This document shows, piece after piece, positions 57,272-61,155 of a DNA stretch of 64,000 nucleotides (positions are counted from its first letter, which is position 1; every line of letters starts with the position of its first letter). The translations under genes and the position numbers were made by a program. The notes under the pieces were generated by a model. That model saw nothing but the letters and a program-made list of their open reading frames with translations, did not search any database and was not told where the DNA came from. Source of the stretch: Escherichia coli (GTDB taxonomy: Bacteria; Pseudomonadota; Gammaproteobacteria; Enterobacterales; Enterobacteriaceae); NCBI RefSeq assembly GCF_013122565.1, contig NZ_CP053258.1; one strand, 5' to 3'.

Positions 57272-58462
57272 CTATGCCGCATTCCCTTTCGCCATCGGAG
57301 CCAGTGCCGCAGGCAACTCTTTACCCAGCCCTTGCACCAGCGAATCTTGCGTAATTTCGCTAATCGATTTCGCGCCAGTCAGCGTCATCGCCACTTTCAT
57401 CTCTTTTTCGATCAGATTTAGCAGGTTAGCTACACCCGCCTGGCCCGCTGTTGCCAGCGCATACAGGAAAGCACGACCCAGCAGTACGGTGTCGGCACCG
57501 AGCGCAATCATACGCACGACATCAAGCCCGTTACGAATTCCGCTATCCGCCAGAATGGCGATATCACCTTTCACCGCATCTGCAATAGCGGGCAACGCAC
57601 GAGCGGAAGAGAGTACACCGTCCAGCTGGCGGCCACCGTGGTTAGAAACCACAATCCCATCAGCACCAAAACGTACTGCATCGCGCGCATCTTCCGGATC
57701 GAGGATCCCTTTGATCACCATCGGGCCATCCCAGAAATCGCGGATCCACTCAAGGTCTTTCCATGAGATGGACGGATCGAAGTTATTCCCCAGCCAGCCG
57801 ATGTAATCTTCCAGTCCGGTCGGTTTGCCGAGATATGCTGAGATATTACCTAAATCATGCGGACGACCGTTTAGGCCCACATCCCACGCCCATTGCGGAT
57901 GTGTCACCGCCTGCAAGTAGCGCCGCATTGCCGCATTTGGGCCGCTCATACCCGAGTGCGCATCACGGTAGCGTGCGCCCGGTGTCGGCATATCCACGGT
58001 GAAAACCAGCGTCGAACAACCCGCTGCTTTTGCTCGCTCCAGCGCGTTACGCATAAAGCCGCGATCGCGCAGCACATAAAGCTGGAACCACATTGGGCGC
58101 TTGATGGCTGGCGCGACTTCTTCAATCGGGCAAACGGAAACCGTCGAGAGAGTAAACGGAATGCCATGCGCATCCGCCGCTTTGGCTGCCTGAACTTCGC
58201 CACGACGCGCATACATGCCACACAAACCCACCGGTGCCAGTGCTACCGGCATCGACAATTTCTCATTAAACAGCGTCGTTTCCAGGCTTAAGTCGGACAT
58301 GTTTTTCAGAATACGCTGGCGCAGCGCCACTTCTGACAAATCTTCCACGTTGCGGCGCAGCGTGTATTCAGAATATGCCCCCCCATCCATATAGTGGAAC
58401 AGGAACGGCGGCAGAATGCGTTGCGCTGCGGCGCGATAATCGCTGGCTGCGGAAATAATCAT
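57272..58462 (-). CDS. lldD: L-lactate dehydrogenase (FMN-dependent)
   Basis: 396-aa ORF, alpha-hydroxyacid oxidase family. Confidence 0.95.
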
Positions 58463-59235
58463 GCGTTTTTCTCCCTCGAATGCTCATTATGCTCACCGGG
58501 CAGGCGGGTAATCCGTGCGTGGCGAGCCTGATCTTCATCGAATCGTTTCATGGTGGTGTGAACAAAACTAAGGTGCGCCATCATTGCTTTACGCGCCCCG
58601 TCGGCATCACCAGCAAAAATGGCGTCAATGACAGCCTGATGTTGTTCGGTCAGTTGTGAAAAAACCGGTGGCACCAGATACATCCGTTGACGGCTATGCT
58701 TCACTGAGGATTGCAGGACATCGAAGAAACCGCGCATGGTTTGCAGCAGCACGATGTTATGTGAGGCTTCGGCAATCGCCAGATGAAAACGAACGTCCGC
58801 TTGTGAGGCGATATCCGGGTCTTCGCTGAGCGTTGCTTCAAAGCAAAGCTGAATCTTTTCTTTGTCGCCAGGTGTGGCGCGCATTGCCGCATGCCACGCG
58901 GTGCTGGCTTCAATGGCGTAGCGAGCTTCCAGAATATCGAAACTGTAATCCGGATCATCGGCCATCAGCGTTTTTAGCGGCTGGACGATGTTTTGCTCCG
59001 ACCATGTGTCATGACGCCAGCGAATAAACGTCCCGCCGCCGCGTCGACTGAGCAGCACGCCTTCGCTCACCAGTTTTGCCAGCGCCTCGCGCAGTGAATT
59101 ACGCGATACGCCGAGTTGCATCGCCAGTTGACGTTCAGCGGGCAACTTCATGCCCGCCTCCAGGTTTTTTTCATCAATCAGCGCCCGCACACGATCGGCA
59201 ACCTCGTCTGACAGGCGTCTGGGTAAAACAATCAT
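58459..59235 (-). CDS. lldR: GntR-family transcriptional regulator LldR
   Basis: ATG at 59235 gives 258 aa; N-terminal winged-HTH plus FCD domain. Confidence 0.9.
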
Positions 59236-60890
59236 TAAGGAATCATCCACGTTAAGACATAGGCCTGAAGCGTGGTGATCACGCCCACCATACAGGTGAA
59301 GATCAGGCTGTGTTTGACAGTAAAGCGGAACAAATCAGACTCTTTGCCCACCAGGCCTACCGCCGCACAGGCGATAGCGATAGATTGTGGGGAGATCATC
59401 TTACCGGTGACGCCACCGGTGGTATTGGCGGCAACCAGCAACAGATCAGAGACGCCAATTTGTTGTGCTGCGGTGGCTTGCAGCGCGGCGAACAGGGCGT
59501 TAGATGAGGTATCCGACCCGGTCAGGAATACACCCAGCCAGCCGAGGAACGGCGAGAAGAAGGTGAATGCATGACCGGTGTGCGCCAGTGCGAGCGCCAG
59601 TGTTGATGACAGTCCGGAATAGTTCGAAATAAAGGCGAACGCCAGCACCATACCGATGGAGTAGATAGGCAGAGCCAGTTCTTTCAGCGTGCTGCCGAAG
59701 GTGCTGATAGCGTCAGATGGTTTCATCTTCAGCCAGACAATCGAGAGCAGGGCAGCAAAAAGAATGGCGGTACCGGTGGCAGAGAACCAGTCGAACTTAA
59801 ACACGGCGGCATACGCTGTCGCCTCGCTGACCACTGGCGGCATACGGGCAACCAGTTTATCGAGGTACGGCACCGGAATATTGATCACCCACTCATACAG
59901 CGCGCCACCCGATGCGAACAGGGCTTTAAACGGCGGGATACTCCACAGTGTTACGGTAGCGGTCAGGAACAGGAACGGTGTCCAGGCACGTAATACCTGA
60001 CCCGCGGTGTAACCGGTGTGGGCCAGCGTCATATCAACCTGTGACGCCCCCAAATCACCAAAACGGAATACGCGCACTGGCTGCCAGCGTTTGAGGAACA
60101 GCGTCAGGCAGAGCAGTGATACCAGCGAAGAGATAATGTCCGGCAGCTCCGGCCCAATGAAGTTAGAGCTAAGGTACTGAGCGATGGCAAACGAGCCGCC
60201 CGCAACCACGACCGCAGGCCACGTCTCTTTGATACCGCGCCAGCCGTCCATAATCGCCATGATCCAGAACAGCACGATAATGGTCATAAACGGTAGCTGC
60301 CGCCCCACCATCTGACCAATCTCAAAGCTGTCGATACCTGTTACCTGTCCGGCAACCAGGATTGGAATGCCCATCGCGCCAAATGCCACTGGCGCGGTGT
60401 TAACAATCAGGCACAGCCCGGCGGCGTACAGTGGTTTAAAGCCCAGACCGACCAGCAATGCGGCGGTAATTGCTACCGGTGCGCCAAAGCCTGCAGCTCC
60501 TTCGAGGAACGCGCCGAAACAGAAACCGACGATCAGCATTTGCAGGCGCTGGTCTGGGGTTATCGAAAGAATAGACGAGCGAATGATGTCAAACTGCCCG
60601 GTTTTCACCGAGATCTTATAGACGAACACCGCTGCAATAATGATCCACGCGATGGGCCACAAACCATAGAAGAAGCCATAAACCACCGAGGCCAGCGCGT
60701 TAGCGACCGGCATTTTATAGAACAGCAAAGCCACGGCAAGGGCGATTGCCACCGTCCATGAGGCGGCAACGTATCCTTTCAGTTTGAGCTTAATCAGCGC
60801 AAAGAAGAAAAACAGGATGGGAAGCGATGCTATCAGGCTGGAAAGCCAGATATTCCCAGCGGGATCGTAGTTTTGTTGCCAGAGATTCAT
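59235..60890 (-). CDS. lldP: L-lactate permease
   Basis: ATG at 60890 gives 551 aa starting [13 protein letters not shown]; polytopic. Confidence 0.9.
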
Positions 60891-60962
60891 TGCAGGTCTC
60901 CTGGAGTCCACGCACATCGTGTAATGAGTCTGTTGCTCATCTCCTTGTCACACGTTGTGTAA

Positions 60963-60979
60963 AAGTGGCACTGCCAATT
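60963..60979. promoter_or_regulatory. Candidate LldR operator (promoter-proximal) upstream of lldP
   Basis: aagTGGCACTGCCAatt GntR/FadR-type palindrome about 75 bp upstream of the lldP start. Confidence 0.5.
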
Positions 60980-61088
60980 ATGTTGTGTAGGGATAATGAC
61001 AATGAATGGTTAACTAAATGTTATGTATTGGCAACATTTATGTGAGTTTTAATTGGGGAACTGTGAACCAGAGGTCAGATAAGCGAAG

Positions 61089-61104
61089 AATTGGTAGGGC
61101 CAAT
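61089..61104. promoter_or_regulatory. Candidate LldR operator (distal) upstream of lldP
   Basis: aatTGGTAGGGCCAat palindrome about 200 bp upstream of the lldP start. Confidence 0.5.
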
Positions 61105-61120
61105 CTTGGGAGATAGGTAA

Positions 61121-61155
61121 TGAAGAAAAGGGCAATTCCCATCAGAGAATTGCCC
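61121..61155 (-). terminator. Rho-independent terminator downstream of the adhesin gene
   Basis: Minus strand: gggcaattc-tctgatggg-aattgccc hairpin followed by TTTTCTTC. Confidence 0.55.

Follow-up and report, generated by a model that had tools for sequence, protein, structure and literature searches.

Two palindromes upstream of lldP in Escherichia coli very probably form the LldR operators O1 and O2 of the lldPRD promoter

Are the two short palindromes upstream of lldP in this Escherichia coli genome the operators through which LldR controls the lldPRD operon, and how might such a pair act? The window considered here is the 64,000-nucleotide (64 kb) stretch of contig NZ_CP053258.1 (assembly GCF_013122565.1), and an initial annotation made from its letters had proposed two GntR-type palindromes, about 125 bp apart and upstream of lldP, as candidate LldR operators. 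The palindromes are found exactly where they had been placed: on the plus strand, TGGCACTGCCA occupies 60966-60976 and is a 5+1+5 inverted repeat without mismatch, and TGGTAGGGCCA occupies 61092-61102, with only its outer TGG/CCA perfect; taken with its flanks (AATTGG-N5-CCAATC), the arms of the latter are matched at 5 of 6 positions here and at 6 of 6 in K-12. Because lldPRD is on the minus strand, higher coordinates are upstream of lldP, and both palindromes do lie upstream of its ATG (60890-60888). The genes and the terminator of this region are as follows.

57272-58462, minus strand: lldD, FMN-dependent L-lactate dehydrogenase (Pfam FMN_dh, 426 bits; K-12 annotation)
58459-59235, minus strand: lldR, GntR/FadR-family regulator, 258 aa, second gene of the operon (Pfam GntR and FCD)
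59235-60890, minus strand: lldP, L-lactate permease, 551 aa (Pfam Lactate_perm, 784 bits; K-12 RefSeq orthologue)
61128-61157, minus strand: intrinsic terminator of the upstream adhesin gene, strong, with a 13-pair stem followed by a T-run (terminator scan)
61302-63908 and beyond, minus strand: gene for a large UpaG/EhaG-type trimeric autotransporter adhesin, YadA-like (YadA_head, eight stalk repeats, YadA_anchor)

The LldR encoded in the window is identical to K-12 LldR at 258 of 258 residues, and the published operator specificity therefore transfers directly. It scores 499.7 bits with the NCBIfam LldR equivalog model (cutoff 311), as against 182 for PdhR and 126 for GlcC; there is no LldR-DNA complex among the solved structures, the nearest of which are those of PdhR. 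An in-frame ATG at 60915-60917, 27 nt upstream of the lldP start, gives a mechanical open reading frame of 560 aa; the start at 60890 (MNLWQQ..., 551 aa) is supported by the GGAG at 60901-60898 and by the K-12 annotation. The adhesin gene probably continues past the end of the window. K-12 has yibL at this position, and an adhesin there is also common in E. coli. REP-like palindromes (GCCGGATGCGGCG... and CCTGATAAGCGTAGCG..., within 61170-61260) precede the terminator, downstream of the adhesin gene, and a sub-threshold Rfam match to naRNA4 falls among these REP-like sequences at 61176-61216.

The functional units are 17-bp boxes read on the minus strand, which refines the reading of the palindromes as 11-mers.

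61105-61089, lldP-sense (minus) strand: probable LldR operator O1, 17-bp box GATTGGCCCTACCAATT, -105 to -89
60979-60963, lldP-sense (minus) strand: probable LldR operator O2, 17-bp box AATTGGCAGTGCCACTT, +22 to +38

The architecture of the LldR box AAnTGGTCnGACCAnTT, a 17-bp inverted repeat in which outer AAT/ATT arms flank a TGG-N5-CCA core, is present at both O1 and O2, and each departs from AATTGGN5CCAATT at just one of its 12 specified positions. Both diverge at the inner GGT/ACC positions (GGC in O1, GGC/GCC in O2), and so do the K-12 boxes. The measured distance between the boxes, 126 bp both start-to-start and centre-to-centre, bears out the earlier estimate of about 125 bp and corresponds to 12.0 helical turns at 10.5 bp per turn.

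Table 1 of Anzai et al. 2023 (PMC10272880) gives the LldR boxes of the K-12 lldP promoter as AAtTGGcCctACCAaTT and AAgTGGcactgCCAaTT, with scores for the LldR box of 12/14 (O1) and 10/14 (O2); its authors equate them with the two sites that Aguilera et al. 2008 had footprinted. The same promoter is the strongest LldR gSELEX peak genome-wide, with an intensity of 62.9, and was bound by LldR in gel shifts (PMC10272880). In a base-by-base alignment O2 agrees with the K-12 box AAgTGGcactgCCAaTT throughout (17/17) and O1 matches the K-12 box AATTGGCCCTACCAATT at 16 of 17 positions, with an outermost G for the K-12 A. From O1 to the ATG there are zero indels relative to K-12 and four substitutions between or beside the boxes. 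Because there are no indels between the boxes relative to K-12, the 126-bp spacing is preserved. Both palindromes coincide with published operators, and their spacing does fit the two-operator arrangement of LldR, as had been suggested. The footprints of Aguilera and colleagues (2008) reportedly extend from -105 to -79 at O1 and from +22 to +48 at O2, with a transcription start 110 nt upstream of the ATG, a distance that agrees with the +1 at 61000 anchored on the ArcA site (below). Taken as a whole, these matches make it very probable, and the best explanation, that the palindromes are the cores of O1 and O2 of the lldPRD promoter, to which LldR dimers would bind. The pair is already known and ordinary, and the initial annotation identified it correctly.

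Directly beside O1, on its upstream side, 6 bp (within CCCCCCACAAGA) are missing relative to K-12 (61105-61112). In the alignment, E. coli 118UI shares both the outer G in O1 and the 6-bp-shorter flank, and the flank is matched in an estimated ~590 complete E. coli genomes. These matches rule out reading the G and the shorter flank as marks of a special or non-coli allele, and the differences are ordinary variation. The LldP of the window is 100% identical to that of Escherichia sp. E1V33, a genome in which the sequence upstream of O1 is unrelated. A further 100% identical LldP with the same O1 and O2 boxes is found on CALXDF010000207.1, binned as an 'uncultured Oscillospiraceae' MAG; this contig is almost certainly mis-binned Escherichia.

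Species-representative genomes were scanned with LldP, and the 80 loci obtained represent at least 24 named genera (among them Escherichia, Salmonella, Citrobacter, Klebsiella, Enterobacter, Kluyvera, Raoultella, Kosakonia, Cedecea and Buttiauxella), which together with the window and K-12 make 82 upstream regions of Enterobacteriaceae. Two LldR-type boxes are present in 82 of the 82, at 123-127 bp from one another, and the centre-to-centre spacings are distributed as follows.

126 bp: 58 regions
125 bp: 20 regions
124 bp: 2 regions
127 bp: 1 region
123 bp: 1 region

The spacing is thus 125-126 bp (11.9-12.0 turns) in 78 of 82 regions, in contrast to the distance from O2 to the ATG, which varies from 49 to 86 nt. 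In the eight most divergent loci the leader is shorter by ~30 bp and the spacing is still 124-125 bp. These short-leader loci (L072-L077, L079 and L081, from Cedecea, Dryocola, Buttiauxella and Enterobacter sp. R1) have O2 centred at -49 to -53 relative to the ATG, and their two boxes are nearly alike (such as TATTGGTCCTACCAATC) and nearer to the GGT/ACC consensus. Mean column conservation, taken from a 74-sequence alignment, differs along the region.

O1: 0.93
O2: 0.90
-35 to start: 0.85
O1 to -35: 0.62
Upstream of O1: 0.39

The pattern is a clean phylogenetic footprint of two operators, the core promoter and the ArcA site. With conservation at 0.39 upstream of O1, the adhesin terminator marks the upstream limit of the lldP control region.

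The elements between and beyond the boxes can be placed once the transcription start is fixed.

61007-61049, plus strand: ArcA-P operator of three direct repeats, overlapping the core promoter (-35/-10)
61034-61029, minus strand: candidate -35, TTGCCA, 5/6 against TTGACA
61011-61006, minus strand: candidate -10, AACCAT, 3/6 with the key A2 and T6 present, after a 17-bp spacer
61000, minus strand: predicted start of lldPRD transcription (+1), anchored on the ArcA site and 110 nt before the lldP ATG
60891-60999, minus strand: lldP 5' leader, containing O2 and a Shine-Dalgarno GGAG at 60901-60898

The K-12 ArcA site TGGTTAACTAAATGTTATGTATTGGCAACATTGATGTGAGTTT is annotated at 3775263-3775305, which is given as -49 to -7 (supplement of Park et al. 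2013, PMC3798270), and because the equivalent sequence in the window is 61007-61049, +1 falls at 61000. With the start so anchored, O1 and O2 lie on opposite sides of it; the LldR sites are published as flanking the transcription start on both sides (PMC3424551), and O1 and O2 as enclosing the -35, the -10 and the ArcA operator, all of which fall in the stretch from +1 to -80 (PMC8689689). A box coordinate of 3775215 given in the study of PdhR (PMC7660256) corresponds to -97, the centre of O1, and provides an independent check of the numbering. A sigma-70 promoter had also been expected between the sites, and in substance this expectation holds. A strict sigma-70 consensus scan of 60800-61400 gives no promoter match; a looser enumeration gives the weak pair TTGCCA-17-AACCAT, with a predicted start at ~60999 as compared to the anchored 61000. 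The TTGC of the -35 is invariant in 73-74 of 74 species and the -10 candidate lies within a conserved block (TTAACCATT, 61013-61005). Since the weaker pair is conserved and fits the anchored start, the null result of the strict scan is not counted against the promoter, and a weak -10 is to be expected of an activator-dependent promoter.

Within the leader, blocks conserved beyond O2 are TTTTACA (60964-60958) and AGACTCA (60931-60925), both on the minus strand. The predicted RNA fold of the leader is no more stable than those of shuffled sequences (z = -0.25), and a search of the region and leader against Rfam gives no match at the gathering score; weak matches to naRNA4 and STnc380 (E = 0.3-0.6) are sub-threshold, and we take them as REP-related or chance and reject an RNA element on this basis.

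The ArcA site of the window matches TGGTTAACTAAATGTTATGTATTGGCAACATTGATGTGAGTTT at 42 of 43 positions, with the lone substitution at 61039, and belongs by its direct repeats with 11-bp spacing to the class of ArcA-P operators, matching the lldP site defined by ChIP-seq and PWM. Its 15-bp ArcA box GTTAACTAAATGTTA (61009-61023) has one mismatch to the consensus and is the sole match at no more than one mismatch in the window. Further upstream, a TCACA in the lldP sense at -66 to -62 (61066-61062) is invariant in 74 of 74 species and has variable flanks, and it sits outside both the annotated ArcA site (-49 to -7) and the two LldR boxes. We know of no annotation of this element in the lldP control region. 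Its plus-strand form, TGTGA, is spaced exactly 21 bp from the TGTGA in the third ArcA repeat (61041-61045), a distance that would suit a fourth such repeat; read as TTCACA, it scores like a -35 as well. There is a small chance that TCACA is an extra control component, which might be a fourth ArcA-P repeat that carries the repression complex further toward O1, a binding site of some other factor, or part of a cryptic second promoter with TTCACA as its -35. A CRP site can be ruled out, as the position of its partner half-site (-77 to -73) is TGACC and is not conserved.

How the parts might work together can be set out conditionally. In the published K-12 model, induction by lactate requires the distal site, O1, and repression needs the proximal one, O2 (PMC8689689, PMC3424551). 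Without lactate, LldR dimers would occupy both O1 and O2, which would lie on one face of the DNA, 126 bp apart, with both the weak sigma-70 promoter and the operator of ArcA between them; the dimers would interact and loop out the promoter, giving repression. On binding of L- (or D-) lactate the repression mediated by O2 would be relieved and LldR at O1 would activate, ArcA-P between the operators would repress independently under anoxia, and PdhR may also occupy O1.

Three other readings bear on this account. That the palindromes are chance short GC-rich inverted repeats without function has practically nothing to recommend it beyond the bare core, TGGN5CCA, which occurs at its expected frequency (15 in the window, 14.5 +/- 4.5 in shuffles). 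The longer AATTGGN5CCA is found twice against 0.67 expected, and AATTGGN5CCAATT with no more than one mismatch is found twice in 64 kb against 0.30 expected, the two being O1 and O2 and no others; with up to three mismatches there are 26 in the window against 41.8 expected, and so without general excess. A Poisson estimate of the probability of at least two such boxes within one 400-bp region is ~2e-6. Because the 11-mer core is not enriched and the 17-bp box is rare, significance is placed in the longer boxes and their context: the signal is real, but what carries it is the clustering of the 17-bp boxes and the position that they occupy, and not the 11-mers by themselves. Chance occurrence is ruled out by this uniqueness in the window, by (near-)identity to experimentally bound K-12 sites, and by the retention of boxes and fixed spacing in 82 of 82 regions while adjoining sequence diverges. 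A reading with somewhat less than an even chance is that O1 is primarily or additionally an operator of PdhR, the pyruvate-sensing paralogue, which would bind the AATTGGnnnnACCAATT box and repress lldPRD at low pyruvate, such that the distal palindrome integrates pyruvate and lactate. PdhR is the nearest family match of LldR after LldR itself and provides the closest solved structures; the E. coli PdhR box AATTGGTnnnACCAATT has the same 17-bp palindrome architecture as O1 and O2. It has GGT/ACC where O1 and O2 instead have GGC/GCC in one or both half-sites, and in the window O1 matches it at 12/14 (G at position 1; 13/14 in K-12) and O2 at 11/14, pdhR itself lying outside the window. Aguilera and colleagues (2008) are said to have seen no effect of PdhR on an lldP-lacZ fusion. 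In K-12, a PdhR gSELEX peak is found at yibL/lldP, where AATTGGccctACCAATT matches the PdhR box at 13/14, and lldPRD mRNA is up 3.3-fold in a pdhR mutant (PMC7660256); however, this peak is weak (632-943, as against 9,889 at pdhR, with a cutoff of 500; PMC7660256), whereas lldP is the strongest of all LldR peaks (PMC10272880). PdhR binding at lldP is weak and its physiological role there disputed, and the PdhR reading adds to the LldR reading and does not replace it.

The remaining reading concerns the loop, which in our account is inferred and in the published model unproven, the phasing and its conservation being compatible with it. O1 and O2 could instead act independently, O2 as a downstream roadblock or block to promoter clearance that lactate relieves and O1 (at -97) as an activator site, with their spacing reflecting fixed distances to the promoter; we regard this as the less likely course. 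The fixed distance of each site to the core promoter would alone conserve the O1-O2 spacing, and in a massively parallel reporter assay (MPRA) on lacUV5, pairs of LldR operators gave neither synergistic nor periodic repression (PMC7804116), although lacUV5 is a foreign promoter context. In an engineered promoter, removal of 10 bp between O1 and the -35 left sensing unaffected, whereas a deletion of the same length between the -10 and O2 left the promoter uninducible (PMC8689689); the former does not discriminate on looping, because a 10-bp deletion keeps the helical phase, and is hence no argument against it. Against independent action stand the spacing of 11.9-12.0 turns in 78 of 82 regions and the findings of Aguilera et al., in the form in which later papers summarise them, that repression needs both sites and that the distance between the operators and their angular orientation make a difference (PMC8689689, PMC3424551).

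Comparison with related systems places the two LldR operators in context. The window and K-12 lldPRD have in common the locus, an LldR that is 100% identical, O2, O1 at 16 of 17 positions, the spacing, the placement of the boxes with respect to start and ATG, and the ArcA operator in between; K-12 differs in the outer base of O1 (A), in the 6-bp longer O1 flank, in four substitutions and in having yibL as the upstream neighbour. The LldR of Corynebacterium glutamicum and the LldR/D-LldR of Pseudomonas (AATTGGTAtTACCAATT at +11 to +27) are likewise GntR/FadR regulators with the same type of palindrome and lactate as effector, and share an operator downstream of the start that is a repressor site (PMC6731338). 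They have one operator and pure repression, whereas in the enterobacterial promoter 126 bp separate two operators and LldR is both repressor and activator. LacI (O1/O3), GalR (OE/OI) and AraC (O2/I1) also use two in-phase sites flanking a core promoter, an arrangement in which repression is proposed to be phase-dependent, but the LldR loop is inferred, and the MPRA gave no periodicity of the looping type (PMC7804116).

The lldPRD promoter is textbook material: it has already been footprinted and mutated, and lactate biosensors have made use of it, so the operators carry little weight as a discovery. They do illustrate that such sites can be called correctly by a reader from sequence alone, and the check also yields exact coordinates for the promoter elements. 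The conserved boxes and their 125-126 bp spacing bear on the question of whether LldR represses by DNA looping. If the TCACA element is indeed a further control component, then together with a near-invariant spacing across at least 24 genera it would favour a higher-order LldR/ArcA nucleoprotein architecture over two independent sites.
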